Below are positions 1,988 to 14,312 of a DNA stretch of 64,000 nucleotides, in pieces. Numbering within the stretch: position 1 is the first letter of the stretch; each line of letters begins with the position of its first letter. The notes under the pieces were generated by a model. That model was not told where the DNA came from. It saw nothing but the letters and a program-made list of their open reading frames with translations, and did no database searches. The stretch is from an uncultured bacterium (GTDB lineage Bacteria; Chloroflexota; UBA5177; JANWHV01). The position numbers and the translations under genes are program-made. The stretch is taken from positions 64,001-128,000 of the forward strand of contig CAWHAE010000016.1 in NCBI GenBank assembly GCA_963827235.1. Direction: 5' to 3'.

Positions 1988-2410
1988 CCGGCCGGTTCTC
2001 ATGCCGGCGTCCAGCCTCCATGGGGGCTGGCGATAGCTGCCGCGCCTCTCCCGCGGTCCCGGCGGGGAGGGGTGCCGCTTGGACGTAGCTCATCGCGGCT
2101 AACACCCGGCGCGGTGGGGCTGTGCCCTGCGCTCCTGCCGCGATGGCGGCGAGCGCTCTTCCAGGGCTGCAAGGGCGTTCCGGCAGCCGGAGCGGCTTCC
2201 CGGGTTGCCGCGGTGGACGGGCTGCCGGTTCAGCACCGGCGAGTACGGTCCGCGGCCTGCGGTCCTACTGCTCGCAGAAGGCCGATCTGCAGACGAAGCG
2301 CGCTAAGGCGTACTACACTGATAGAATTGCAGTCATCGAATTCGACATGTGCCGGCACATTGCCGGCGCGAACGTCGACGGGACGGTCATGGTTGACGGG
2401 AGTATTCCAC

Positions 2411-3337
2411 GTGACGCCACGAGGATGGGCGTTGTTTGCCGCGCTGTCCGTATTCTGGGGGATCCCCTACTTCTTCATCAAGATCGCGGTGAAGGACATC
2501 GATCCGTCGGTCGTCGTCTTCTCAAGAGTCGGCATCGCTGCCTTGGTCCTTCTGCCGCTGGCCTGGCGCCGCGGCGCACTGCAGGCGGTGGCGGGCCGCG
2601 CCGGTCCGGTCGGCCTGCTTGCCCTCGTCCAGATAGCGGTGCCCTTCTTATTGATCAGTTATGGCGAACAGCACGTCGCATCGTCCATGACGAGCCTAAT
2701 CGTCGCCTCGGAGCCACTGGTCGTGGCCCTGCTCGCCCTTCGCTTCGACCACAATGAGCGCGTCGACGGACCCCGCTTCGCCGGGCTTGTCGTGGGCGCG
2801 GCGGGCGTAGCAGTGCTCGTCGGACTGGACACTAGCGGAGACGGGCTGCGCCTGGTAGGAGCGCTTTGCGTGCTGGTCGCAACCACCTGCTACGCGGCAA
2901 GCGCGCTGATGATGCGGTCGCCGGCCTACTCACGCCTCCCCAGCCTCGGCGTGGTCGCCATCGAATGCGGCATGACGACCGTCCTGTTCGCGCCGCTTGT
3001 CGCGGCACGCTTGCCGTCACATCTGCCCGGCTGGAACGTCTTTGCCAGCCTGATCGCCCTTGGCCTGGTTTGCACCGCCCTGGCAGAGCTCACCTACTTT
3101 GCTCTGGTCGCCGAGGTAGGAGCAAGCCGTGGCATCGTGTTCACCTACGTCAACCCGGTGGTATCCGTGCTGCTGGGAGTGGCGTTTCTCGCCGAGCCTC
3201 TCACGATCTCGATCCTCTGCGGCTTCGTACTGATACTCGCAGGATCCTATTTCTCCACCGGCGGCAGGCTGCCCCGCCTGCTCCAGCGCAAGGACACGAT
3301 AGCGGCGGCCTCGGAATGGCGCGACGGGTGCGCATGA
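2411..3337 (+). CDS. EamA/DMT family transporter
   Basis: About 10 hydrophobic segments; WGIPYFFIKIAV and TYVNPVVSVLLG motifs; GTG start after GGGAG. The ORF-track N-terminal extension looks spurious. Confidence 0.9.
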   Translation: MTPRGWALFAALSVFWGIPYFFIKIAVKDIDPSVVVFSRVGIAALVLLPLAWRRGALQAVAGRAGPVGLLALVQIAVPFLLISYGEQHVASSMTSLIVASEPLVVALLALRFDHNERVDGPRFAGLVVGAAGVAVLVGLDTSGDGLRLVGALCVLVATTCYAASALMMRSPAYSRLPSLGVVAIECGMTTVLFAPLVAARLPSHLPGWNVFASLIALGLVCTALAELTYFALVAEVGASRGIVFTYVNPVVSVLLGVAFLAEPLTISILCGFVLILAGSYFSTGGRLPRLLQRKDTIAAASEWRDGCA

Positions 3338-3409: not shown

Positions 3410-4750
3410 TCACCGATCGCGGTAGAGATCGTCTCGGGTCGGCGGCAGCTCGCACCTACCTCGGGCGCCGGAGCTAGACAGTAGGAGCTGTACGAGACCG
3501 AGATCGCCGGCGCTGAAGCCGTGCGCCGCCCCCGACATGTAAAGACGCCACACCCGATAGGTCGGCTCGCCTACCAACCGCGCTGCTTCGACGTGCCGCT
3601 CCTCCAGGCGCTTCACCCAGTGCCTGAGCGTACGCTCATAGTGCTCGCGCAGGTTCTCGAGATCGCGAACCTCCCAACCCGCACCGGCAGCGGCTCGCGC
3701 GAGCTCCCACGAATGCAGTAGCTCGCCGTCCGGAAACACGTAGCGCTGGATAAACCGGCCTTCTCCGCGCGCGGACGACGCGACCCGGCTGAGCGGGTTT
3801 CCGCTCCCCGCGGCACCTTGCTCCACGATGCCATGAGCCAGAAAGAGGCCGCCTGCCCGGACGGCCCGGCGAGCGACGGCGAAGTAGCGGTGCATGTTCG
3901 CGCGTCCAACGTGTTCGAGCATGCCGATGCTGACAACCTTGTCGAACACCGCCCCCTTGGCGAGGTCCCGGTAGTCGCGCACCTCGATCGTCGCCCTGTC
4001 AGAAAGTCCGGCAGCGGCCACGCGTTCGCGCGCCAGGCCGGCCTGCTCCCGGCTAAGGGTGATACCGGTGGCTCGCACGCCATACCGCTCCGCGGCATAC
4101 AGCACGAGTCCGCCCCAGCCGCAGCCGATGTCGAGCAGGGTCTCGCCCGGCTTCAAGCGCAGCTTCCTGCAGATATAGTCCAGCTTCGCCTCCTGAGCCT
4201 CGTCGACGTCCTCGTTCCCTGTCGGAAAGTAGGCACAGGAGTAGACAAGTCGCTGGTCCAGCCATAGCGCGTAGAAGTCGTTGCCCACGTCGTAGTGCGA
4301 GCGCACGCTCGTGGCATCCCGTTTGCGCGAATGGCGGCGTGCTAAGCCACGGCGGGCCTGCGACGTTCTCCCGTCCATCGACTCGCGCACCGGGCCTTGC
4401 GGCAGCTGCCTGGCCAGTGACAGGATTCGTGCCAGACGCAGTGGCGAGCGAATGGACCCTGAAAGCGACTGCGCGAGAGCCATGACCGCCTCCATGTCGC
4501 CTTCGACGTCGAAGTCGTCGCGCAGATACGCTTCAGCGGCGGCGATCTCGGTCGGAGGCAGGAGCATGCTCCGCAGGGCCCACGGCCCTTGCAGCACAAT
4601 CACGCACGATGGCGCGGGCGAAGGATCCTGGGGCTCGACGGAGCCATCCCAGTAGCGGACCTGGAAGCCGCGGTCCGCCGGGGCCCCGAACAGCATCGTC
4701 ATGATCTGCCTCGACCGTTCGATATCCATCGGGTCTCGACCAGGTTCCAT
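3410..4750 (-). CDS. cfa: Cyclopropane-fatty-acyl-phospholipid synthase family SAM methyltransferase
   Basis: HYDVGNDFY, YSCAYF, LDIGCGWGG, SIGMLEHVG, YVFPDGEL, HYERTLRHW motifs. Confidence 0.92.
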   Translation of the reverse strand: MEPGRDPMDIERSRQIMTMLFGAPADRGFQVRYWDGSVEPQDPSPAPSCVIVLQGPWALRSMLLPPTEIAAAEAYLRDDFDVEGDMEAVMALAQSLSGSIRSPLRLARILSLARQLPQGPVRESMDGRTSQARRGLARRHSRKRDATSVRSHYDVGNDFYALWLDQRLVYSCAYFPTGNEDVDEAQEAKLDYICRKLRLKPGETLLDIGCGWGGLVLYAAERYGVRATGITLSREQAGLARERVAAAGLSDRATIEVRDYRDLAKGAVFDKVVSIGMLEHVGRANMHRYFAVARRAVRAGGLFLAHGIVEQGAAGSGNPLSRVASSARGEGRFIQRYVFPDGELLHSWELARAAAGAGWEVRDLENLREHYERTLRHWVKRLEERHVEAARLVGEPTYRVWRLYMSGAAHGFSAGDLGLVQLLLSSSGARGRCELPPTRDDLYRDR

Positions 4751-4898: not shown

Positions 4899-6563
4899 TT
4901 AGCCCTGAAGCTCCACGTCGCGAAATTCCATAGTCACGAACCAGTCGTCGATATCCTGGAGCATAACCGCTGAGGCCTGGCGGGCCACCGCGTGCATAGT
5001 CGGCAGGTCGGGAGCGCTATCCATCCGCTGCTGGAGGCTCCTCAAGTAGCGGGCCATTCTCCCGCTACGTTGCGCGTTTCTGCGGTGCTCGCGCTGGGCG
5101 CCAATGGCACCCAGTGCGCTCGCCGTGGCCGGCAGGGCGACCGACATGTAGACGACCACCGTCGTCCAGGGCGGCGGCTCACCCGTGGTATCGGCCGTGA
5201 TGCCAAAGGCATTCAAGCCGGCAATAACCAGCGTTGAGAAGAAGATGATCACCGACGTGTTTGAGATGAGCCTGTTGTTCCACTCGTGGCGCCGGCTCTT
5301 CTTGAGCTGGTAGGACGCCTGATCGCCGATCCAAGCCCCGGCCAGGATGTGCCGCAGGCGGTCGAGCGGCATCGACGGATCGGGCGCCGGCCGGTGGCTC
5401 CAGATCTCGTCGTACGCTCGCTCGAGCCAGGTTTCCGATGACTGGTGAAGGTCCACGTGCTCGGTCTCGCGCTCGCCCTGCCGGTCGAGGCTGACCAGGG
5501 CAAGAAACATGGCCGAGCGCAGCCGCTCGGCCAGAATGCGGTGGTAGATCCAGCCGCGGTGATACGAATGCCGCCTGACCAGGTAGAGAACGATCAACAC
5601 GAGCAGCATGGCAGCGGACTCAATGAGGGGAAGCGGCCTCAGACGGTCGAACAGGCGCACGTTCACGAGCCAGGGCACACTGTGCGCGAGCTCCGCGCCG
5701 GCGGAGGCGATGACGGCCAGGGCGGTGAGGATCACTATGCCGTCGCTGAGCCTGAAGAACCGCCGTTGGTAGCGCACCGCGAGCATGTCGGCACGCACGA
5801 AATGCGGGGCCAGCCAGTCGCAGAACGGCGCTACCAGGCGGCCGGGTATGCCACTCTCGGCGGCCTGTCGCAGGACCAGAGCCGAGTAGTCGGCGACGCT
5901 CTGACGAAACCTCTCCGCGGGCAGGGCCGCGCCGTTGTACCGATCGAGATCCTGGAATGCCGCGGCGTCCAGGCCGTCGCCAAGCTCTTCGGTCAGCTCG
6001 AGCGGCGGCGCGGTGTGCACCCAGAGCAGAGGAACGCGCCGGTCACGCGCCCAGTCGACGACGTCTGCCGTGCCTCCCTGTCCGCGCGCCGGCTGCCCGT
6101 CCCATAGCGCAACCAGGATGTCGCAGCGCTCGACCACGAAACGCCCGGCCTGTTCGTACGACTCGTCGCGCGTCTCTGCGGCAGGCAGCTCGACCACACG
6201 GATGGCGCGGGCCAGGAGAGCGTCGAACTGGTCGCGCGAGGAGGCGGTGCCGAAATCGGTCCTGTAGTCGTCCGCCGGTAAGGGCAGTATCGCCTCGAGC
6301 TGCGCGGCAGGATCCTCGAGCACGGCCTCGGCAAGCAGGCGGTCGGCGCCCTCGGCGAGGCTCGAAACGATGGAGAAGCAGATCGGCGAGCTGCTGATCG
6401 CCGCTGCCAACTCTCGGGCTCGGTGCAGCGAAGCCGACACCAGGTCGGAGACAGCCCGATCATCGGCAAGATTGCGGTGGCCGGTAACGCCTATGCGCAG
6501 CCTGAACGGCACGATCCCGCTGTCGTCCTGCACCACTTCTCCCGACTTCTGGTCGAGTGCCAT
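4899..6563 (-). CDS. YpsA-like SLOG domain fused to two SLATT-like 2TM domains; putative nucleotide-gated membrane effector
   Basis: N-terminal IGVTGHR, SSLAEGAD, ILPLP, LVALWDG...GGT (SLOG); ADMLAVRYQRR-2TM-W..HR.LAERLRS (SLATT/DUF4231-like); WIGDQASY-2TM-REHRRNAQRS (second SLATT-like). Confidence 0.8.
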   Translation of the reverse strand: MALDQKSGEVVQDDSGIVPFRLRIGVTGHRNLADDRAVSDLVSASLHRARELAAAISSSPICFSIVSSLAEGADRLLAEAVLEDPAAQLEAILPLPADDYRTDFGTASSRDQFDALLARAIRVVELPAAETRDESYEQAGRFVVERCDILVALWDGQPARGQGGTADVVDWARDRRVPLLWVHTAPPLELTEELGDGLDAAAFQDLDRYNGAALPAERFRQSVADYSALVLRQAAESGIPGRLVAPFCDWLAPHFVRADMLAVRYQRRFFRLSDGIVILTALAVIASAGAELAHSVPWLVNVRLFDRLRPLPLIESAAMLLVLIVLYLVRRHSYHRGWIYHRILAERLRSAMFLALVSLDRQGERETEHVDLHQSSETWLERAYDEIWSHRPAPDPSMPLDRLRHILAGAWIGDQASYQLKKSRRHEWNNRLISNTSVIIFFSTLVIAGLNAFGITADTTGEPPPWTTVVVYMSVALPATASALGAIGAQREHRRNAQRSGRMARYLRSLQQRMDSAPDLPTMHAVARQASAVMLQDIDDWFVTMEFRDVELQG

Positions 6564-6603: not shown

Positions 6604-9600
6604 CTACTCGTGCAGATACGTTGTTCGCTCAGCCGGCGTCAGGGTCCGAGTCTCCTGTTGGGCCGCAAGAGCCAGCAGCTGACTTTGCGATCCGCAGATT
6701 CCGCACGTGTGCACGCGGATCTCGCCGTCCAGGCCGGACGAGAGCACCGAGCGGCCGTCGGGGCCGAACGACGCCGTGAACACGCTGGCGCCGTGCCCTA
6801 CCAGGACGGCATCTTGCGTCCAGTCGCCGACCGACCACAGGCGCACGGTGTCGTCGACACCGGACGTAACGATCCACCTGCTGTCGGGGCTGAACTCCGC
6901 GTCGGACACGAAGCCGGTGTGCGCCTTCAGCACGGCGATACCCTCTTCCGTCCCGGCATCCCACACTCTGGCCGTGCTGTCGTCGCTCGACGTGACCAGG
7001 TATTTACCGTCCGGACTGTAGGCGACGGTCCACACCAGCGAGCTGGAGATCGATGCTTGGCGCAGCTTATGCCAGTTGTCCACAGAGTAGAGAATCAGCA
7101 GGTGGCTGGTCACGGCGCCGTTGGCAATCACGGCCAAGGTGCGGCTGTCGGGACTGAATGCCACCGAGGCAGCGGTGAAGAGCTCGCCCTTGGCGAGTCC
7201 CTGGAAGCCTCGCAAGGTCGTCACCACTTTCCAGGCAGGCACGCTCCACACGACCACCGTGCCGTCGGCGCCGGCGGTGGCAAGCAACCGGCCGTCGGGG
7301 CTGAAGGCCACCTGGTTCACCCCGCCCGAGTGCCGGCCGAGATTCTGTAGACGCTGCCACGTTCGCGTGCTCCAGATCCACGTCGATCCGTCGTCGCTGG
7401 CCGTGGCCAGCATCGAGCCGTCCGGGCTGTAGATCGCTTGCTTGACCTGACCACCCTGACCGGTCATGGTCGTGATCGGCCTGCCGGTGCGGCCGTCAAA
7501 GACTCGCGCCGTGGCGTCCTTCGTGACGGCAACAATCTGGGAGCCGCTCGGACTGTAGGCAGCCTCGAGAAGCGCGGCGCCGGCCGGTACCGCGGCAAGG
7601 ATGCTGCCGGCATGGAAATCCCAGATGCGGGCCGCGCCGTCCCGATTGCCGGTCAACACCGAGTTGCCGTCCGGGCTGAACATGGCGCTGTAGACGTCAC
7701 CGCCGGTCGAGCGCAGCGCCGCCAGCGGATAGCCGCCTTGCGCGGCCCATACCCGGCTCGTGCCATCGCCGGCCGCGGTCACTATGAGTCGCCCGTCCCG
7801 GCTGTACGTTGCGCTCCAGAGTATGATGGTCTGGCCGGCGAAGAGATAGGCGCTCATCTCGCCCGTGTCGACGCTCGAGACCAGTGCAGCCCCTTCCGAG
7901 CCGGCGGTGAGCACATAGTGACCGTCGGGGCTGAAGGTGAGCGAGTTGATGTGATTGCCGGAATGCCCGGTGATCACCGAGAGCAGCTTGCCGTCCGGCA
8001 CGGTCCACACCCGTGCCGTGCCGTCCCAGCTCGCGGTGGCGACGTAGCGGGAATCCGGGCTGAATGCGACCAGATCGACGATATCTTTGTGACCGCTCAG
8101 CACTCGGAGGCTCCGGCCAGTTCCCGCATCCCAGAGGCGGGCCGTGTAGTCCGCGCTCGCAGTCGCCACATAGCGTCCATCCGGGCTGTACACCGCATCC
8201 CATACCGGGTAGGTGTGACCGGTCAGCACGAGCAGCTGGCGGCCGGTGCGCGCGTCCCAGATACGGGCCGTGTCGTCGTAGCTGCCGGTCAGAATCCGGC
8301 TGTCGTCAGGACTGAACGAGGCCGCGATCACCGGGCCCTTGTGGCCCCGAAGGATGTTCACCAGGCGCCCTCCCGGCACCTCCCAGACGCGGGCGGTGTC
8401 GTCGACGCTCGTGGTCACGAGGTATCGGCCGTCGTGACTGAACGCCGCAACCAGGACGTAGCCCGTGTGGCCGGTGAGCACGGCCAGGGTCCTGCCGGTG
8501 CGCGCGTCGAAGATGCGCGCAGTGTGGTCGTATCCCGCCGTGGCTACATAGCGGCCGTCCGGACTATACGCGGCCCCAAACAGCAGTCCCTTGTTGCCTC
8601 GCAACACCTCGCGAGGATAGGGTTGGCTCAACGCCTGCCTCAGCGCCTCGGTCGCCTCGCTGGTGCCGGCCCTGCGCACCGCCGAGTCCGCCAGCAGCAG
8701 GCTGAGCTGAGGATCGCTGTCGAGCTTCGCCAGCGAATTCGCCGCCAGCTCCCTGGAGATAGCGAGGTTGCTGGCCGTCACGGCCTCACTTCGGCGCTGC
8801 TCGGCCAGAGCCTGGGAGGCCCTGGCCGCCTTCTCCGCGGACTGCGCCTGATTGGTCCGCTGAATGGCGACGATCGTAGCGATGACCATGCACACGGCCA
8901 GCACGCCGAGACCCAGCGAGAACAGGCGTGCGACCCGCGCGCGCCTGCGCTCTGCCTCCGCCTGCCGGCGTTCCGACTCGGCCAGGCGCTTGGCCGCCTC
9001 GAGCTCTCGTCGCTGCCGTTCCTGCTCCTGCTCCTCCTCGCGCCGCTGCGCGAGCGCGCTCTCGTCGAGAAAAGCGCTTTCCAGCTCGTTCAAGCTGTCG
9101 GCATGCTGCGATTGCCACTCCAGCGCCGTTGCCAGTCGCGCCCCACGATAGAGCGTGCTCTCGTCGCGATCGAGACGCTGCCATTCCAGGGCTGCCTCGG
9201 TGAGACGCCGCTGCACGCGCAGGCCGCTCCGATCCTCGTCGATCCAGGACCGGAGCTGCGGCCATCCGCGGATCAGCGCTTCGTGCGAGACCTCGACCAT
9301 GTGTCCGTGCGTCGCTTCGTCCTCGCTGGTGGTCAGCAGCCTGGCCGCCACGAGGGCATGTACTACCGCGTCGACCGACCCCGCCTGAGCCGCGCCGGTG
9401 GTCAGCTCGCTGAGCGAAGCCCTTCGCCTCGTGTCCTCAGTGCCTTCGCCAGGCTGCGTCAGGCGAAGGAGCGCCCGGCGCGCGATGCGCTGCTCGTCGT
9501 CGCTGAATTGGCTGAAGATCGTATCCGCGCGCTTGGCAATCGCACCCTGGACGCCGCCACTTTCCCTGTACGCTTCCAGCGTCAGCATATGGCCGCGCCT

Positions 9601-10827
9601 GCGCTCCCACAGCTCAAGCAGCGCGTGCTCGAGCAGCGGCAGCGCGCCCGGCTGGCTCGCCACGTCGTCCAGTACTGTATCGACCAGGCCCTGCTCGAAC
9701 TCGAGGCTCACGTGCCAGGCCGGCTCCTCGATGGCGCGACGCAAGCCCACATGATCGAGCGGACTTACCAGAAACTGCTGTGCCGCAATGCGCGCCGACA
9801 GGTCCGGATAGGCGGCGCACTTTGGGTAGAAATCAGCGCGGAGTGTGAGCAGCACGATGCAGCGGCCGTCGGCCACCGAGGCAGCGTACAGGAGGTTAGC
9901 CAAGAACTCGGACCGCTCATGCTCGTCCGTACACAGCGTGAAGATCTCCTCGAACTGGTCGACCACCCATACCACCCGGTCTGGGCCCGGACGGTCGGCG
10001 AGTGCCAGCGATACCGACAGGTGAAGCGTGCGCGCGTCCGTCCCCATGTCGTCGAGCGTGCGGTGCATCGAGCTGTGCTCGTAGAGCCTGGAAACCTGCG
10101 CGGCGAGAGTAGTGAGTGGATGGGCACCCGGCGCGAAGACGCAGGTGGTCCAGTCGTGGCTGCCTGGAAGCGCGCCTTTGCGCAGCGCCGGCACCAGGCC
10201 TGCCCTCACCAGAGACGACTTGCCGCTGCCCGAGGGGCCGAGCACGGCGAGGAAGTGCGACGTCTTCAGCTTCTCCACCAGGCGCTGTACGTCGCCGTCG
10301 CGGCCGAAAAAGAACTCGGCGTGGTCTTCGTCGAAGGTTTGCAGGCCGCGATAGGGGCACACGTCGGTGCGCGATTCCGGCTCCACCTGCTGGCCGAACG
10401 GCACGCCCTTAATTGCGTTCACCAGATGCTGGAAGGCGCGCGAATCCTCGATGCCCGGGCGAAGGTCGACCCAGGTTCGTGTGCTCAGGAAGGGCGGCAG
10501 CACAGTGGAGTCAAAAGGCTCCTGGATGCCGGGCAGCAGGACGAGAAACAGGCGGAACTTCCGGTCCTTGGCCGCCCGGTCGAGCGCGACACCCAACTCC
10601 TCGTGTACCCAGTCGCCGAGGCCATGGGGACCCACGAACACCGCGCAAGCCGAACATGCGCGAAGTCCGGCCACGAGCTCTTCCTGCCAGCGGCCGCCCG
10701 GCGTCAGGCACCACTTGTCCAGCCAGGGCTCCAGGCCGGCCGATTTCAGCTTAACGGCAAGGCGTTCGACCGCGGGTTTATCGCGGCTGTTGTGCGACAG
10801 AAAGACGTCGAAGCGCTGTTCATCCAT
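6604..10827 (-). CDS. TIR + nSTAND1-type NTPase + single TM helix + 15 WD40 repeats (NLR-like receptor)
   Basis: FDVFLSHNSRDK...WLD...WVHEE (TIR with Glu); CPYRGL..F......FFGR, GPSGSGKSS (Walker A), VVDQFEEIF (Walker B), LPLLEHAL, EVSHEALIR.W; TM LFSLGLGVLAVCMVIATIVAI; 15 GH...SPDG...WD-type repeats counted by eye. Confidence 0.93.
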   Translation of the reverse strand: MDEQRFDVFLSHNSRDKPAVERLAVKLKSAGLEPWLDKWCLTPGGRWQEELVAGLRACSACAVFVGPHGLGDWVHEELGVALDRAAKDRKFRLFLVLLPGIQEPFDSTVLPPFLSTRTWVDLRPGIEDSRAFQHLVNAIKGVPFGQQVEPESRTDVCPYRGLQTFDEDHAEFFFGRDGDVQRLVEKLKTSHFLAVLGPSGSGKSSLVRAGLVPALRKGALPGSHDWTTCVFAPGAHPLTTLAAQVSRLYEHSSMHRTLDDMGTDARTLHLSVSLALADRPGPDRVVWVVDQFEEIFTLCTDEHERSEFLANLLYAASVADGRCIVLLTLRADFYPKCAAYPDLSARIAAQQFLVSPLDHVGLRRAIEEPAWHVSLEFEQGLVDTVLDDVASQPGALPLLEHALLELWERRRGHMLTLEAYRESGGVQGAIAKRADTIFSQFSDDEQRIARRALLRLTQPGEGTEDTRRRASLSELTTGAAQAGSVDAVVHALVAARLLTTSEDEATHGHMVEVSHEALIRGWPQLRSWIDEDRSGLRVQRRLTEAALEWQRLDRDESTLYRGARLATALEWQSQHADSLNELESAFLDESALAQRREEEQEQERQRRELEAAKRLAESERRQAEAERRRARVARLFSLGLGVLAVCMVIATIVAIQRTNQAQSAEKAARASQALAEQRRSEAVTASNLAISRELAANSLAKLDSDPQLSLLLADSAVRRAGTSEATEALRQALSQPYPREVLRGNKGLLFGAAYSPDGRYVATAGYDHTARIFDARTGRTLAVLTGHTGYVLVAAFSHDGRYLVTTSVDDTARVWEVPGGRLVNILRGHKGPVIAASFSPDDSRILTGSYDDTARIWDARTGRQLLVLTGHTYPVWDAVYSPDGRYVATASADYTARLWDAGTGRSLRVLSGHKDIVDLVAFSPDSRYVATASWDGTARVWTVPDGKLLSVITGHSGNHINSLTFSPDGHYVLTAGSEGAALVSSVDTGEMSAYLFAGQTIILWSATYSRDGRLIVTAAGDGTSRVWAAQGGYPLAALRSTGGDVYSAMFSPDGNSVLTGNRDGAARIWDFHAGSILAAVPAGAALLEAAYSPSGSQIVAVTKDATARVFDGRTGRPITTMTGQGGQVKQAIYSPDGSMLATASDDGSTWIWSTRTWQRLQNLGRHSGGVNQVAFSPDGRLLATAGADGTVVVWSVPAWKVVTTLRGFQGLAKGELFTAASVAFSPDSRTLAVIANGAVTSHLLILYSVDNWHKLRQASISSSLVWTVAYSPDGKYLVTSSDDSTARVWDAGTEEGIAVLKAHTGFVSDAEFSPDSRWIVTSGVDDTVRLWSVGDWTQDAVLVGHGASVFTASFGPDGRSVLSSGLDGEIRVHTCGICGSQSQLLALAAQQETRTLTPAERTTYLHE

Positions 10828-10973: not shown

Positions 10974-13900
10974 TCAGGAGCCCGTAACCTGCCGCTCGTC
11001 GACCAGGAGCAGGGGGTCGAAGGCCACGTTGTTTACCCGCATCTCAAAATGGACGTGGGGACCGGTCGCCCAGCCGGTTTGACCCTCGTAGCCGATGACC
11101 TGTCCCTGGCTCACCACCTCGCCCACGCGGACCTGCAGGTCATGGGCCCCGATCTGCATGTGGCCGTAGATGGTAACGGTGTGCGCGTTGTGCATGATCA
11201 CCACGCTGTTGCCGTAGCTCTCGGAGGGCTCGCCGGGCACGGTGAGGCCCGCGTGGATCACGATGCCGCCGGCCGCGGCGTGGACCGGCGTGCCGTCCGC
11301 AGCCGCGATATCCAGCCCGGTGTGGAAGGACTGGAAGGGCGTGGACCCGCCGAAGAGCGTGGTGATCACGCCGGTCACCGGCGGCAGGTAACCGGTCACA
11401 TTCTCCATCACGCCGGCCTTGATGAGCTGCTGCTGCGTGAACTGGCTATACCCGTTGGAGGCAAGCTGGTTATCCAACATATAGGTCGCAGAGGCTGTTG
11501 AGAACGAGATCGGCAGCGTGACCCAGCCCGGCAACGGTGCAAGCGGCGCGGGCAGCGGCTCGAGCGCAGGCGAGGGGCCGGGTTGCGCGACGGCCTTGGG
11601 GCCCGGCCCGGGAGTGGGCACCGGAGGCGTTGCCGTCGGGCGCCTGGACGTAGCGGTCGGGCGCGGCGTAGGCGACGCAGTCCGCGTGGGGGTTTTCGTC
11701 GGCGTGCGCGGGCGGGTCGCACTGGCAGAAGGCATCGCCGTGGGCGTGCCGGTCAAGCTTGCAGCAGGCGATCGGCTAGCCGAGCCGGTAGCCGCGGATC
11801 GTGAGGACAGACTCTCGGCAGCAGTTGGACTAGGGGTCGGAGTCCGGCTGGACGTTGGCGTCGCAGTGGGGACTCGGCTGGCGGTGGACGACGGCGTGGA
11901 CGTGCCGGTGGCAGTGGGACGCTCCGTCGAGGTACTTGTGGCTGTGCGACGCGGCGTGACCGTGCTGCTCGGCGTCGAGGTCGGCGCGGGAGTGGCAGTG
12001 GACGTGGACTCGGGCGTCGGAGTGCGCACCCGCACAGTCGGGCTCGGCGTGACCGTGCGGGTAGGCCGCGGAGTGGACGTCGGTGAGCCGGTAGGAGAGG
12101 GCGCCAAGACGACCGCTGTCTGTGTGGCAGAGGGAGCCGCCTGCAGCGCAGGAGAGGGAGTCTCAGCGGACGCGCCCGCAGCCGGGCTTCCTGCTGGAGT
12201 GACAGTCGAGGTCGAAGAGGGCGCGGTCGACTCAGTCGCCGTCGCACTTACCGGCGACGAGGCCGCTAGTGCCAGGGCGGTACCGGTCGGCGTCGCGCTC
12301 GGCGTGACTGCCGCCGCAGTGGGCGTCGGGGTTACGGAGTGGACGGATTCGGTCGCACTCGCGGTGCTCGAAGGCACACGCAGTACCGGCGTGCCGTCGT
12401 CGATTACGGGCCCGGCGGCGGGGAGGCCGATCGCGGCCGCCGCTCCATGCATGGGCATGCCGCCGCCGCCCACGGCCGGGCGCGAGGCACGAACCGTGGA
12501 GGGCGCTTCGCCGTCTGCCGCTGCTGGAGCTAGCTGAGTTGAGCCGGTCGAGAACGGCCGGCCAGACGTGCGGGTAGGAACGGCGCGTCCCGGTCTCGCC
12601 AGTCGAATCGGGCCCATGGTCGCCGTCAACCGCGCATGCAGCCTGCCAAAGGTTGGCGTCGCCGCCGGGGTGGCGGTCCGAGAAGTCTCGCCCGGTCGCG
12701 CAGACGGACTTGGCGCCGGCGTACGGCTCGGAGTTCGCGTGGGACTGGGCACCACGGTACCCCTTGGCGTGCCGGTAGGCGGCGCCGCTTTGTACTTCAG
12801 ATAGTAGTTCCAGGCGGACTTGCGCGTCTGCCAGGCAGCAAGCCGAGTCTGGTAAGCGTTCCAGGCATTGGTCCTGTCCCAAAACGCCTGCTGTAGTATC
12901 GAATTGTGGCTGACGGCGGCAGAGAGCGCGGCATTGAAGGTGGCCAGCCGGGCATCGTACAGCGGTTTGATCGCCTCGTACGCCGCGTCGCCGTTCTGCA
13001 GGATCGACGACAGACTCGTGAGCAGAGCGCTCTCCTTCCGCAGCCCGTCTCGGATGGACTTGTCAGAGAGCAGATCCGAGACCCTCGCCGATGCCGAAAG
13101 GGTCATCGTCGTGGAGACCGGCACCACTGCTTGCAGGAGCCCGTCGCCGTTGGCCGCCAGCGACAGCGTCACGGAGGATCCGGAAGGCGCGGACGGTGCC
13201 TCCGCCGCCACGACGTACGAGCTGACCTGACCGCTTTCCAGCCGGCCGGAGGCAGAGGCAAGCGTGCCCAACGTGAGCAAGGTAGAGCTGCCGGTCAATG
13301 GCGCCGTCTCGGTGTAGGCCCAGGTCACGGCGACCGGAAGCGGCAACTCCGGCACCACCGACTCCGTGTGCCGGGCGGAATCCTGGGAGGGGAAGATCGA
13401 ATACCGGCCCAGCACGGACGTGATCTGGCTCATCCGCGTGATCGGCTCGGATGCCTGCACGGCGACGCTGGACAACCGATCGGGCAGAGAGAGCGCGTCG
13501 ACCAGATCGGGAAGGACCTGGGAGGACCGCATGACCGCGGTCAGCGCCGCGGCACCATGAGTGGGGATCTGCGCGGGCGGAACCGTCGTGGTTATGGCAA
13601 CGTCGGCAGCAGGTGTGAGAACGACTTGCGGCGCGACGCCGGCGACCGGCTCCATCTTGCCCTCGACCTCGAGCTGTCGAGGGAGGCCCAGGTCCACTGC
13701 CGCACCGAGCCGGGCGTAGACGGGCGCACTGGCGGCCGAGCCAGCCACGAGCTGCGGGCTGCCGGTTGGCGCCTTCTCCGTTGCAGTCGAGCGGTTGGAC
13801 GGCGGATCCGACAGGGAGGAGAAGAGCTGCACGGCGGAGGAGTCGAGCAGAGCAGAGCGCCAGGCACTGCTGCCCGGCATGTCGCCGACCGCGGGAGACA

Positions 13901-14312
13901 CGACCGGGGTAGCGGCCGGCACGGAGAGGTGGGCGCCCAGCATGACGCCGGGCGCAATGCTGCGGTCGCTTTCGGCAGTGGGAGTGGACGACGGAGTCGG
14001 GGAAGGCGTCAGGAGTCTGGCAGACTGGGCAAACAGCGTGGCCTGGGCGGCCAGGGAAGGCCGCAGCGCATGAACCAAGTCGCGGGCGATGGCGGCGCCC
14101 ACCACGCCGTCCACGGCGTCAAGCTCGGCCAGCGTAGACGTACGGGCGGCCACGAACGAGCTGAGCCTCGCGGCGAGTACATCGTAGCTAGTAGTCTTCG
14201 CTTGCGCCCGGTACGGAGCGAGCGACTGCCCGATCACGGAGAGGCAAACAAGCAGTATCAGTGCCCCGCGGCAACGCGCGCGAATGGACACGGCACCGCC
14301 GTAAGCTACCAT
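10974..14312 (-). CDS. Large secreted M23 family metallopeptidase with Thr/Ser/Pro-rich linker
   Basis: Signal peptide ending in AQA; long TP/ST low-complexity region; C-terminal HTGLD and GPHVHFE zinc motifs plus YGN..YGH. Confidence 0.85.
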   Translation of the reverse strand: MVAYGGAVSIRARCRGALILLVCLSVIGQSLAPYRAQAKTTSYDVLAARLSSFVAARTSTLAELDAVDGVVGAAIARDLVHALRPSLAAQATLFAQSARLLTPSPTPSSTPTAESDRSIAPGVMLGAHLSVPAATPVVSPAVGDMPGSSAWRSALLDSSAVQLFSSLSDPPSNRSTATEKAPTGSPQLVAGSAASAPVYARLGAAVDLGLPRQLEVEGKMEPVAGVAPQVVLTPAADVAITTTVPPAQIPTHGAAALTAVMRSSQVLPDLVDALSLPDRLSSVAVQASEPITRMSQITSVLGRYSIFPSQDSARHTESVVPELPLPVAVTWAYTETAPLTGSSTLLTLGTLASASGRLESGQVSSYVVAAEAPSAPSGSSVTLSLAANGDGLLQAVVPVSTTMTLSASARVSDLLSDKSIRDGLRKESALLTSLSSILQNGDAAYEAIKPLYDARLATFNAALSAAVSHNSILQQAFWDRTNAWNAYQTRLAAWQTRKSAWNYYLKYKAAPPTGTPRGTVVPSPTRTPSRTPAPSPSARPGETSRTATPAATPTFGRLHARLTATMGPIRLARPGRAVPTRTSGRPFSTGSTQLAPAAADGEAPSTVRASRPAVGGGGMPMHGAAAAIGLPAAGPVIDDGTPVLRVPSSTASATESVHSVTPTPTAAAVTPSATPTGTALALAASSPVSATATESTAPSSTSTVTPAGSPAAGASAETPSPALQAAPSATQTAVVLAPSPTGSPTSTPRPTRTVTPSPTVRVRTPTPESTSTATPAPTSTPSSTVTPRRTATSTSTERPTATGTSTPSSTASRVPTATPTSSRTPTPSPTAAESLSSRSAATGSASRSPAASLTGTPTAMPSASATRPRTPTKTPTRTASPTPRPTATSRRPTATPPVPTPGPGPKAVAQPGPSPALEPLPAPLAPLPGWVTLPISFSTASATYMLDNQLASNGYSQFTQQQLIKAGVMENVTGYLPPVTGVITTLFGGSTPFQSFHTGLDIAAADGTPVHAAAGGIVIHAGLTVPGEPSESYGNSVVIMHNAHTVTIYGHMQIGAHDLQVRVGEVVSQGQVIGYEGQTGWATGPHVHFEMRVNNVAFDPLLLVDERQVTGS

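Follow-up and report, generated by a model that had tools for sequence, protein, structure and literature searches.

Introduction

The closest described relatives of the protein analyzed here are listed in the Figure 2 source data of a survey of NTPase-based conflict systems (Kaur, Iyer, Burroughs and Aravind, 2021, eLife 10:e70394). In this table the architecture TIR+nSTAND1+TM+BetaPropeller occurs 6 times, the examples including a Cytophagales protein of 1414 aa and, from Chloroflexi, proteins with an extra SH3, and HTH and caspase versions are listed as well. The order nSTAND1+TM+BetaPropeller occurs 304 times, nSTAND1+BetaPropeller without a TM 459 times, and the helix segment is annotated as TM in 461 occurrences. 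The tables also place SLATT+SLATT directly downstream of nSTAND1+BetaPropeller in Burkholderiaceae, with the TIR fused or upstream; these SLATT+SLATT partners carry no SLOG call, and SLOG+SLATT occurs 0 times. In the accessible part of the main text, nSTAND1 is defined together with FGS sensors, and neither the TM helix nor an outside propeller is discussed.

Three further groups of systems are relevant. According to the available portion of a Thoeris survey, TIR proteins have been experimentally described with SLOG effectors (type I/III Thoeris) and with SLATT (type VII Thoeris, ThsH, cADPR signal), and the TIRs in Avs are set aside as NAD+-depleting effectors (bioRxiv 10.64898/2025.12.03.692087). 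For bacterial STAND/NLR-like sensors (Avs, bNACHT and relatives), the text at hand has every characterized one sensing phage proteins in the cytoplasm, and it mentions both an nSTAND clade and sensors of the WD40 "Apaf1-like" kind; the word transmembrane occurs in it once, in a figure legend (Nature 2026, PMC13581612). Finally, type-II single-TM proteins (PCTM and TIR-ParA) are proposed, in the part of the preprint available, to sense periplasmic or extracellular invasion signals (bioRxiv 10.64898/2026.10.19.760177).

The gene described here arranges TIR, NTPase, TM and propeller as the published TIR+nSTAND1+TM+BetaPropeller proteins do and shows no architectural difference from them; the receptor architecture is already published, and the present gene is another member. 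New here is the gene downstream, which combines a predicted SLOG fold with two SLATT-like 2TM modules.

Results

The window (the whole stretch of DNA that was analyzed, 64,000 nucleotides) contains the receptor and its downstream neighbor on the same strand, with the following features:

6604..10827, minus strand: whole receptor gene, 1407 aa, TIR-nSTAND1-coiled coil-TM-linker-15 WD40-tail (ORF)
10420..10806, minus strand: TIR domain, residues 8-136, W73 and E77 conserved (Pfam TIR_2, PDB sequence matches)
9160..10356, minus strand: nSTAND1 STAND NTPase, residues 158-556 (PF20703)
8932..9045, minus strand: charged coiled-coil-like helix running into an Arg-rich end, residues 595-632 (sequence, AF2)
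8860..8931, minus strand: single predicted TM helix, residues 633-656 (hydropathy, conservation)
8608..8859, minus strand: post-membrane helical linker, residues 657-740 (AF2, alignment A1)
7597..8607, minus strand: propeller 1, WD40 blades 1-8, residues 741-1077 (AF2 and superposition)
6700..7596, minus strand: propeller 2, WD40 blades 9-15, residues 1078-1376 (AF2 and superposition)
6607..6705, minus strand: conserved C-terminal tail with C1375-x2-C1378, two helices and a YLHE end (sequence, alignment A1, AF2)
4899..6563, minus strand: downstream gene, 554 aa, SLOG-fold N-domain and two SLATT-like 2TM modules (AF2, Foldseek, TM helices)

The TIR_2 profile (PF13676) matches residues 8-136 with E 3.1e-24 and 86.2 bits (cut-off 28), and AbTIR and PdTIR are matched by this domain in a PDB sequence search. 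In the alignment E77 falls on the Glu that both have in the W...EL motif (WTNYELDG in AbTIR, WPQKELDG in PdTIR), which we take to be the catalytic residue of TIR NADase domains, and the W and E of the motif are nearly invariant in alignment A1. Judged by this conserved Glu, the TIR domain is of the NAD-cleaving type. Screening with PADLOC recognized no known defense system and gave just weak matches on the TIR part, where the ThsB models reached E 0.006-0.007 without a qualifying stretch.

The NTPase matches nSTAND1 (PF20703) over profile positions 1-378 of 379 (E 3.7e-133, 445.3 bits, cut-off 27.1), and the isolated region scores 449.6 bits. Walker A (GPSGSGKS, residues 197-204) is intact, and in Walker B (VVWVVDQFEE, of the form hhhhDQFEE, around residues 286-294) the D, Q, E and E are nearly invariant in alignment A1; by these motifs the region is a STAND NTPase with an intact P-loop and an acidic Walker B. 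The preliminary description had likened the receptor to a hybrid with Apaf-1. On residues 140-600, NB-ARC gave no match at E<=0.1, which places the domain outside the AP-ATPase/Apaf-1 NTPases, and the NACHT HMM reached 19.2 bits, under its cut-off of 26.7, which places it outside NACHT. Both clades were rejected, as nSTAND1 alone exceeds its own cut-off on this region, and the name Apaf-1 applies by analogy only. Elsewhere in the protein, Pfam returned nothing over cut-off for the coiled-coil/TM/linker piece or for the tail, and NCBIfam offered no system name, its TolB/PQQ-propeller cross-matches lying far under the cut-offs.

A charged coiled coil and an Arg-rich stretch ahead of one hydrophobic helix had been noted earlier, and both are present at residues 595-656. 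The segment 595-632 contains RREEEQEQERQRRELEAAKR and the Arg-rich run RRRARVAR, with 7 K/R within the 15 residues ahead of the hydrophobic core; in the AF2 model it is helical (pLDDT 60-84, and below 50 at residues 628-641). Residues 633-656 form the sole strong hydrophobic helix, with a 19-residue Kyte-Doolittle mean of 2.61 (next-best segment of the protein 1.66) and a Wimley-White octanol sum of -7.47 kcal/mol. Of the helix first placed at about 8867-8930, the presence stands and the exact ends shift to 8860-8931. AF2 models a single helix over residues 640-701, which extends into the linker, and two short helices after it (pLDDT 79-98); the linker motif SRELAA...DSDPQLSLLLA is kept across alignment A1.

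The helix is kept in 117 of the 120 top matches (query counted) and in 124 of the 140 representatives of 50%-identity clusters that could be assessed, a further 4 having KD 1.82-1.88; these counts, like those that follow, come from related rather than independent sequences, and the topology is read from hydropathy and charge rules. In 118 homologues the 15 residues before the helix hold on average 5.97 K/R and the 15 after it 2.88, the N-side count being higher in 108, equal in 7 and lower in 3; among the cluster representatives it is higher in 116 of 124. N-terminal modules in the set of 120 are TIR-like (113) or HTH-like (6), kinase and cyclase N-termini also occur in homologues, and all modules seen are cytoplasmic types. 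On the same TIR-nSTAND1-TM chassis, homologue P0163 continues as TM592-CHASE2(618-875)-3 TM and P0178 as TM617-CHASE3(648-787)-TM797; P0162 bears an LppP/LprE lipoprotein domain. In these homologues the slot after the helix is thus occupied by extracytoplasmic sensors. Cysteines are distributed unevenly, the query having 8 over the 632 residues ahead of its helix and C1375 and C1378 only in the 751 after it; family-wide their density is 0.86% before and 0.38% after the helix (N > C in 108/118). The post-helix count is even in 83/118 (mode 2), compared with 70/118 before the helix, a modest signal. Omp85 and LpxC were not found in the 95.9%-complete genome, and the host appears to lack an outer membrane.

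The earlier claim that TIR and NTPase are cytoplasmic, with the propellers beyond the membrane, is thus backed by helix conservation, the positive-inside charge pattern, the nature of the N-terminal modules and the CHASE homologues, and as a computational reading it is well supported. The gene product is most likely a single-pass membrane protein with the TIR and the ATPase switch inside and two WD40 propellers outside. Two of the 120 relatives lose exactly the Arg-rich and helix segment and retain the linker and WD40 part; taken with the 459 TM-less table rows, they indicate that nothing intrinsic confines the WD40 module to the outside and that it also works in the cytoplasm.

Fifteen WD40 units with periods of 41-49 residues cover residues 741-1376, and AlphaFold2 models 60 strands, or 15 four-stranded blades, so that sequence and model agree on the blade number first given. 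The split of the blades is a different matter, as the AlphaFold model and structural alignment point to 8+7 instead of the 7+8 proposed initially. Residues 147-483 of the model (736-1072 of the protein) superpose on 8-bladed propellers with Z 45-50, best on ODA16 (Z 49.9, rmsd 1.4 A, 335 aligned) and further on Rsa4, TBLR1, Tako8 and Fbw7. For residues 483-788 of the model (1072-1377 of the protein) the superposition is on 7-bladed propellers with Z 41-45, best on PkwA (Z 44.8, rmsd 1.3 A, 288 aligned) and further on WRAP-T, WDR61 and WDR5.

As the preliminary description held, the blades have diverged from one another, with a mean pairwise protein identity of 32% (maximum 59.5%), a DNA identity of at most 65%, and 16 nt as the longest exact word common to two blades. 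Between proteins, blades 9-15 diverge fastest (42-63% identity in the four closest homologues, where the TIR is 89-92% and the NTPase 80-87% identical), and blades evolving so much faster than TIR and NTPase would fit a sensor. Synonymous sites are probably saturated, because protein identity to the nearest relatives at the DNA level is 64-78%. The CGIC...RTLTPAER..YL tail was found at the C-terminus, as ...HTCGICGS...RTLTPAERTTYLHE; its pattern CxxC...LTPxER..YL is conserved, and a regular expression for the motif finds it in 63 of 120 homologues. Two helices (1381-1391 and 1398-1405) are modeled in the tail by AF2, and R1394 and E1400 are conserved.

The downstream gene starts 40 bp past the receptor stop codon. 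The gap contains no terminator motif, a promoter scan returned 0 promoter-like sites, and inside the downstream gene there are 2 terminator-like sites for a shuffle expectation of 2.1. The AF2 model of the protein has a pLDDT of 88.6. With its N-domain, Foldseek retrieves YpsA (2nx2, E 1.3e-8, TM 0.62/0.69), the ThsA SLOG with 3'cADPR (7uxs, E 2e-4), and also DprA, LOG and TRPM2, and the ESM Atlas lead is likewise the YpsA SLOG (score 0.85). Pfam has no match to this domain at E<=1, and a profile search against PDB sequences stayed at chance level (E >=0.78). In the predicted structure the N-domain is a Rossmann-like SLOG fold, covering approximately residues 20-195. Four TM helices follow in two pairs, near residues 269, 311, 432 and 469. 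The SLATT profiles stay below their cut-offs on this protein (Pfam SLATT_3 21.2-21.6 bits, cut-off 26.3; NCBIfam SLATT_1 21.2, cut-off 41, and SLATT_3 20.6, cut-off 45), its orthologue in genome G067 exceeds that of DUF4231 (26.7, cut-off 24.7), and PADLOC gives 0 matches on the gene. The protein is probably a nucleotide-gated membrane effector or pore.

Full-length orthologues of the downstream gene were found in 6 genomes of 3 families. In 5 of these a TIR sensor protein is encoded within 10 kb (the contig of the sixth is too short for a verdict), with the architecture TIR-nSTAND1-TM-WD40, TIR-TM-WD40 or TIR-NB-ARC-TPR, and this proximity suggests a Thoeris-like TIR-to-pore pathway. Seen from the receptor, a gene of the downstream type lies within 6 kb in 1 of 34 related loci, a count that is partly an artefact of flank length, as one orthologue begins just past the fetched flank. 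In the same-genus genomes G001 and G003, genes for PrsW, a Zn-ribbon protein and an S53 peptidase occupy 6-8 kb between the two genes. The receptor and the SLOG-SLATT gene are not obligatorily coupled.

The 8 Mb genome contains 3 strong TIR ORFs only. One paralogue, P0007, is 64% identical and lies on another contig amid metabolic genes, without a SLOG-SLATT neighbor. Another 7 intact paralogues have an N-terminal HTH-like module in place of the TIR, all with TM and WD40, and 3 more of the HTH type are split or truncated. A search with the NTPase domain alone yields 53,806 cluster representatives at E<=1e-3, and in the sampled near relatives the sensor lies mostly beyond a membrane helix. The other neighbors in the window are housekeeping-like, including a cyclopropane-fatty-acid-synthase-type methyltransferase, an EamA transporter and an M23 peptidase.

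Discussion

On balance we lean slightly towards the view that the gene product is an nSTAND1 receptor of type II (N-in, C-out) with a single membrane pass, which would drive a Thoeris-like TIR-to-pore abortive response via the downstream gene. Canonical STAND autoinhibition requires contact between sensor and NTPase, and a membrane between them forbids such contact. With TIR and NTPase in the cytoplasm and the propellers outside the cytoplasmic membrane, binding of an extracytoplasmic ligand to the fast-evolving propellers may alter how the stalk and TM helices pack or oligomerize. This change would license NTP-dependent oligomerization of nSTAND1, gathering the TIR domains so that they begin to cleave NAD+. 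The SLOG domain of the downstream protein would most likely read the ADPR-derived, cADPR-type nucleotide made by the TIR, and the two SLATT-like 2TM modules of that protein could then open the membrane in a signal-to-pore abortive response. Direct NAD+ depletion may contribute as well.

That the whole arrangement serves outside-in Thoeris-like immunity is a tentative proposal, doubtful in its full extent. The 8+7 ectodomain would sense a cue from outside or at the envelope, for example damage to the wall, a phage adsorbing to the cell or a protein that a competitor injects or secretes, and signal through the TM and nSTAND1 by a cADPR-type nucleotide to the pore with its SLOG domain and SLATT pair, the HTH paralogues acting as membrane-tethered transcription switches. 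Naming phage, predator or neighboring cell as the trigger is pure conjecture.

Clearly less probable than the favored view is that the topology is as described and the TIR is a self-contained NAD+-depleting effector, in the style of TIR-bearing Avs/STAND proteins, with the SLOG-SLATT gene an independent island neighbor. The solitary paralogue P0007, the single locus of 34 with such a gene within 6 kb and the intervening genes in G001 and G003 all fit this, as does the NAD+-depleting class to which Avs TIRs are assigned in the available part of the Thoeris survey (bioRxiv 10.64898/2025.12.03.692087). Less easily reconciled with an independent neighbor are its proximity to TIR proteins of three architectures in 5 of 6 genomes, the small number of strong TIR ORFs (3 across the 8 Mb genome) and the tabulation of SLATT+SLATT downstream of nSTAND1+BetaPropeller in Burkholderiaceae (eLife 10:e70394).

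It is unlikely that a filamentous or multicellular bacterium uses the protein as a general, non-immune outside-in receptor that reports on development, on contact between cells or on the state of the envelope, with the TIR as one output among others. Such a role would agree with the 7 intact HTH-headed paralogues with TM and WD40, the kinase and cyclase outputs of homologues, the presence of CHASE2 and CHASE3, which are classical signaling sensors, and a window not recognizable as a defense island. The conserved-Glu TIR, the caspase versions and the SLATT partners are hallmarks of conflict systems, however; the propellers also evolve far more rapidly than TIR and NTPase, and the many paralogues in the genome resemble immune-receptor repertoires.

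Although the TM-less relatives with the same linker and WD40, the many nSTAND1+BetaPropeller proteins without a TM, the uncertainty of AF2 at the helix entry and the fit of a cytoplasmic sensor to the canonical STAND mechanism would suit a buried oligomerization helix or peripheral anchor with cytoplasmic propellers, as in Apaf-1 and Avs-like STANDs, this is very improbable in view of the membrane-grade hydrophobicity (KD 2.61 over 19 residues, WW -7.47 kcal/mol), the consistent Arg/Lys excess on the N side, the bracketing TM helices of the CHASE2/CHASE3 homologues and the 461 TM annotations of Kaur et al.

If both the topology and the link from TIR to SLOG/SLATT are true, bacteria possess receptors that join Toll-like logic (outside repeats, inside TIR) with the nucleotide-driven switch of NLRs, and threats could be sensed before or at the breach of the envelope. 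If the outside-in reading holds, these would be surface-sensing NLR/TLR-like receptors, a class without a tested example. With its two genes the module is small enough for topology, TIR product and effector gating to be tested directly.

Comparison with known systems

With Apaf-1 and the AP-ATPases, the protein shares an N-terminus that recruits effectors, an NTPase of the STAND class and a double WD40 propeller of 15 blades; full-length Apaf-1 is matched by Foldseek (E 5.6e-41) and phmmer (2.5e-57), and the C-terminal tandem propellers of the family are present (15 blades, 8+7). In contrast to Apaf-1, the NTPase belongs to another clade, the TIR replaces CARD and a TM helix lies between NTPase and propellers. 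The blade order of Apaf-1 is 7+8, whereas the present protein is modeled as 8+7.

Toll-like receptors likewise have an ectodomain built from repeats, a single TM helix and a TIR on the cytoplasmic side. The present protein is reversed with respect to these, with an N-terminal TIR and predicted type II orientation, it has WD40 instead of LRR and an inserted NTPase, and its TIR is of the enzyme type with a conserved Glu rather than an adaptor scaffold. No LRR is among the Pfam matches listed for the receptor, which sets it apart from Toll-like receptors proper, and homology with these is confined to the TIR. Of the hybrid of Toll-like receptor and Apaf-1 envisaged in the preliminary description, the predicted outside repeats and inside TIR remain; the orientation is reversed, the LRR are missing and the NTPase clade differs.

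As in Thoeris, a TIR gene lies beside an effector gene with a nucleotide-sensing domain (40-bp gap, SLOG fold), and this neighbor unites the SLOG nucleotide-sensor fold and the SLATT-like membrane modules; in contrast to the small ThsB of the systems covered in the available part of the survey, the TIR here forms part of a transmembrane STAND sensor of 1400 residues (bioRxiv 10.64898/2025.12.03.692087). The tripartite logic of effector, NTPase and repeat sensor is that of Avs/bNACHT as presented in the accessible text, but here a membrane is predicted to separate the sensor from the NTPase (PMC13581612). The receptor-like ParA systems, so far as the available part of the preprint describes them, share a cytoplasmic NTPase, one TM helix, a variable extracellular sensor and SLATT/TIR partners; theirs is a ParA/SIMIBI NTPase with peptidoglycan-binding or other small sensors, whereas the present protein combines a STAND NTPase with a double propeller (bioRxiv 10.64898/2026.10.19.760177).

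Domain organization and the predicted membrane helix

The preliminary description dealt with the C-terminal two thirds of the main gene product, for which the following features, all on the minus strand, were delimited:

6604..10827: main gene, 1407 aa
residues 8-136: TIR_2 (Pfam, E 3.1e-24)
residues 158-556: nSTAND1 (PF20703; Pfam, E 3.7e-133, 445 bits, cut-off 27.1)
residues 595-632: charged segment and Arg-rich run (sequence, as quoted in that description)
residues 633-656, window 8860-8931: hydrophobic stretch (hydropathy)
residues ~740 to 1370: WD40 repeats (PF00400; Pfam, E 1.2e-110)
residues 741-1376: fifteen WD40 units (repeat delimitation)
C-terminal to the WD40 units: tail, C1375-x2-C1378, then ...RTLTPAERTTYLHE (sequence)

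A charged segment and an Arg-rich run do precede one hydrophobic helix, and 15 WD40 blades with a Cys tail follow it, as had been described. The TIR domain can be aligned with the bacterial NADase TIRs AbTIR and PdTIR, which places E77 at the Glu position of their W...EL motif, presumably the catalytic residue of NADase TIRs. The NTPase has the Walker A motif GPSGSGKS (residues 197-204) and a Walker B motif, hhhhDQFEE, that sequence and alignment show to be kept in the family. On the isolated NTPase region nSTAND1 was the sole Pfam family above its cut-off; NACHT stayed below threshold (19.2 against 26.7) and NB-ARC was absent among the matches at E<=0.1. Residues 633-656 are the sole membrane-grade hydrophobic segment of the protein (Kyte-Doolittle (KD) 19-residue mean 2.61, against 1.66 for the runner-up; Wimley-White sum -7.47 kcal/mol).

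A homologue search with the main protein (8000 candidates scored, 6688 at E<=1e-3) was followed up in the best 120, query included. In 117 of these a helix with KD of at least 1.9 lies 400-460 residues past Walker A, and one more (P0070) has it in the same position with KD 1.76. The related, Thermoanaerobaculia-type homologues P0086 and P0095, also among the best 120 of 6688, are without exactly the Arg-rich and hydrophobic segments: the coiled coil is directly joined to the SRELAA...DSDPEL linker, and the tails are without CxxC. These two TIR-nSTAND1-WD40 proteins, with the TM segment cleanly missing and the flanking coiled coil and linker kept, would represent, as judged from sequence, a natural cytoplasmic version. 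Searching 1.84 billion cluster representatives with the NTPase domain gave 53,806 matches at E<=1e-3 and 22,046 at E<=1e-30. The helix was scored in the best 150, of which 10 were set aside (too short or without recognisable Walker A); a helix with KD of at least 1.9 directly follows the NTPase in 124 of the 140 assessable representatives, 4 have KD 1.82-1.88, and 12 are without it.

Predicted orientation of the protein in the membrane

On computation only, the best-supported reading is that the TIR and NTPase lie inside and the propellers outside, and to this extent the topology first proposed holds; it draws on charge, N-terminal modules, domain swaps and cysteines. The positively charged flank of a membrane helix is the cytoplasmic side (positive-inside rule). 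Among the 118 helix-bearing proteins, K+R per 15 flanking residues averages 5.97 on the N-side versus 2.88 on the C-side (N-side higher in 108, equal in 7, lower in 3), the same comparison of net charge gives 111, 4 and 3, and K/R in the 124 helix-bearing cluster representatives from the best 150 gives 116, 5 and 3. By that rule, the excess before the helix therefore places the N-terminal part in the cytoplasm. The N-terminal modules are TIR-like in 113 and HTH-like in 6 of the best 120 of 6688, kinase and adenylate cyclase modules also occur among homologues, and every output module seen is of a cytoplasmic kind.

The strongest comparative argument on orientation comes from domain swaps after the helix, scanned in 22 of 46 helix-bearing, WD40-poor representatives chosen for having 0-1 WD40 signatures. 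After the helix, 6 carry an FGE-sulfatase domain, 7 WD40 or another beta-propeller and 2 TPR; Sortilin-like, CHASE2, CHASE3 and LppP/LprE lipoprotein domains occur once each, and 3 have no recognised domain there. CHASE3 is an extracytoplasmic sensor domain, and the layouts of these homologues, TM617-CHASE3(648-787)-TM797 and TM592-CHASE2(618-875)-three TM helices, are those of classical extracytoplasmic sensors. CHASE2 is likewise given as an extracellular domain in the accessible part of the literature.

Exported proteins show cysteine exclusion and pairing. In the main protein, 8 Cys precede the helix and 1 lies within it, whereas the 751 residues that follow contain C1375 and C1378 only. 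Across the family, Cys density is 0.86% on the N-side of the helix versus 0.38% on the C-side, and is higher on the N-side in 108 of the 118 helix-bearing proteins; C-side counts are even in 83/118 (mode 2), N-side counts in 70/118. This pattern fits an exported post-helix domain; the parity signal, set against the N-side count, is modest. Searches for Omp85 and LpxC, which detected both in control genomes, gave nothing in the window's 95.9%-complete genome, and the nearest named relatives are MAGs of Chloroflexota; it would follow that the propellers face the wall or exterior, not a periplasm. Further homologues come from Acidobacteriota, Verrucomicrobiota, Proteobacteria, Frankia and Nonomuraea.

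Structure and divergence of the propellers

Residues 590-1407 were modelled with AlphaFold2 from an alignment combining the query piece with 66 of the 119 homologues listed, hand-picked as full length with a similar tail (mean pLDDT 93.0, pTM 0.84, 60 strands; pLDDT <50 solely at residues 628-641). A single helix spans residues 640 to 701, membrane segment included, and the tail forms two confidently modelled helices (1381-1391 and 1398-1405). In structural alignment, residues 736-1072 fit 8-bladed propellers (ODA16, Z 49.9, rmsd 1.4 A, 335 aligned; also Rsa4, TBLR1, Tako8 and Fbw7) and residues 1072-1377 fit 7-bladed ones (PkwA, Z 44.8, rmsd 1.3 A, 288 aligned; also WRAP-T, WDR61 and WDR5). 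The blade order is thus 8+7, in place of the 7+8 first given, and with this amendment the original observation is confirmed. With the whole model, the top Foldseek matches were a Nostoc repetitive propeller (2ymu, E 2.6e-50) and full-length Apaf-1 (3sfz, E 5.6e-41).

Pairwise, the blades are on average 32% identical in protein (maximum 59.5%) and at most 65% in DNA, where the longest exact word in common is 16 nt; since they are diverged at both levels, the earlier statement that there is no sign of ongoing repeat shuffling stands. Compared with its four closest homologues, the main protein is 89-92% identical over the TIR, 80-87% over the NTPase, 56-75% over blades 1-8 and just 42-63% over blades 9-15; with one homologue, identity is 91% in the TIR and 36-41% in the propellers. 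Such conservation of TIR and NTPase with diverged blades is the pattern expected if the propellers were a fast-evolving or exchanged recognition module.

Paralogues and genomic surroundings

The window's genome (7.98 Mb, 21 contigs) encodes a second TIR paralogue, 64% identical, on a different contig. It also holds HTH-like-nSTAND1-TM-WD40 paralogues on contigs C10, C12 and C1 (e.g. C12:983191-987609, C10:53608-58575, C10:1050324-1054919), 7 intact and 3 split or truncated, whose N-termini were assigned to XRE-type HTH by eye and by resemblance to PF01381-carrying homologues. Every intact one has the helix (KD 2.07-2.92) and WD40 repeats; the sequences of these paralogues suggest STAND transcription regulators tethered to the membrane. 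Most end in another conserved tail, C...NRNLT..EW..YL..PY..TC, whose two Cys are far apart. A third strong TIR ORF (C9:823273-826149, plus strand, 958 aa) matches the TIR profile at E 2.3e-59.

Around the main gene and its downstream neighbour, the window contains:

2072-3337, plus strand: EamA transporter
3410-4750, minus strand: cyclopropane-fatty-acyl-phospholipid-synthase-type methyltransferase (CMAS; E 1.3e-93)
4899-6563, minus strand: SLOG-SLATT gene, 554 aa, 40 bases downstream of the main gene, same strand
10974-14312, minus strand: M23 peptidase-domain protein, 1112 aa, directly upstream of the main gene (C-terminal M23, E 3.7e-26)

The M23 protein has an N-terminal hydrophobic segment followed by ~900 residues of Pro/Thr/Ser/Ala-rich low complexity, and is probably a secreted or wall-associated peptidoglycan hydrolase. 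With CMAS-type and EamA genes at its border, the TIR/SLOG-SLATT pair is flanked by ordinary membrane-lipid and transport genes, and no recognisable defence island surrounds it in the window.

Recurrent pairing with a SLOG/SLATT-like gene

The most useful new point is that TIR sensor proteins are repeatedly paired with a gene for a SLOG-fold domain and two SLATT-like modules. The terminator scan found no terminator motif in the gap between the two genes. In the neighbour, SLATT_3 and SLATT_1 matches were under their cut-offs (Pfam, NCBIfam), and the first 200 residues had no match in sequence libraries. An AlphaFold2 model of this N-domain (9-sequence alignment, pLDDT 88.6) gave Foldseek matches to YpsA (2nx2, E 1.3e-8, TM 0.62/0.69), DprA, ShosA, LOG, TRPM2 and the ThsA SLOG domain with bound 3'cADPR (7uxs, E 2e-4); the predicted fold thus matches the SLOG superfamily. 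Beyond the N-domain, the protein contains four TM helices arranged in two pairs, as two SLATT-like 2TM modules. The N-domain has the conserved motifs GVTGHR, S.LAEGAD and WDG....GGT, and across the phylum occurs alone or with other C-termini in proteins of 171-907 aa.

Among 41 relatives and 401 genomes of the phylum, full-length SLOG-SLATT orthologues were present in 6 genomes: 4 of the window's genus and 1 each of a second (G011) and third (G067) family. For five of the six, a TIR sensor protein is encoded no more than 10 kb away:

Window: TIR partner adjacent
G001 (same genus): 7.9 kb upstream; PrsW-like, Zn-ribbon and S53-peptidase genes intervene
G003 (same genus): 6.0 kb upstream; PrsW-like, Zn-ribbon and S53-peptidase genes intervene
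G011: 1.25 kb off, divergent; TIR-TM-WD40 without NTPase
G067: 113 bp off, divergent; TIR-NB-ARC-TPR

In the sixth, the same-genus G004, the contig stops 5.9 kb upstream of the orthologue. A SLOG-only relative lies 1.9 kb from another TIR-TM-WD40 protein in G217. Chance adjacency is unlikely, because the window's genome has just 3 strong TIR ORFs in 8 Mb. An obligatory link is counted against by the second TIR paralogue, which has no SLOG-SLATT neighbour, and by the presence of a SLOG-SLATT-like ORF inside the 6-kb flanks of only 1/34 related loci. The recurrent pairing suggests that the TIR may signal to a pore-forming effector instead of, or besides, depleting NAD+.

The cassette between the two genes in G001 (L044, 2498-10064) and G003 (L045, 3259-9300), missing from the window, encodes a pair of PrsW-like intramembrane proteases together with several zinc-ribbon proteins and one peptidase of the pro-kumamolisin/S8 type. 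In G003 the SLOG-SLATT gene is followed by one for a patatin-like phospholipase; in G011, too, such a phospholipase gene flanks it.

Comparison with known systems

A full-text literature search found no paper that discusses or tests such a topology for STAND proteins. The name nSTAND1 comes from Kaur et al. 2021 (PMC8195603), where this NTPase is paired with FGS-type sensors; the TM helix and an outside propeller go undiscussed in the accessible part of that text. Its Figure 2 source data list 'nSTAND1+TM' 461 times, 'nSTAND1+TM+BetaPropeller' 304 times, 'TIR+nSTAND1+TM+BetaPropeller' 6 times, 'HTH+nSTAND1+TM' 48 times and the TM-less 'nSTAND1+BetaPropeller' 459 times. The main protein is a member of this catalogued nSTAND1+TM+BetaPropeller group and has no NB-ARC match at E<=0.1, so that the 'TLR/Apaf-1 hybrid' of the preliminary description serves as an analogy and not as an identity. 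The same source data (PMC8195603) hold three Burkholderiaceae operons with SLATT+SLATT after an nSTAND1+BetaPropeller gene, the TIR being fused or upstream.

A 2026 Nature STAND survey (PMC13581612) records WD40 sensors described as 'Apaf1-like' as well as an nSTAND clade, and 'transmembrane' occurs once only, in a legend, in its accessible part. A 2025 preprint (bioRxiv 10.64898/2025.12.03.692087), as far as its available text goes, describes TIR-plus-SLATT as type VII Thoeris with cADPR, as well as SLOG-bearing effectors, and leaves aside the TIRs of Avs proteins. The available part of a 2026 preprint (bioRxiv 10.64898/2026.10.19.760177) presents analogous type-II 'receptor-like' ParA immune proteins, with periplasmic or extracellular sensing proposed.
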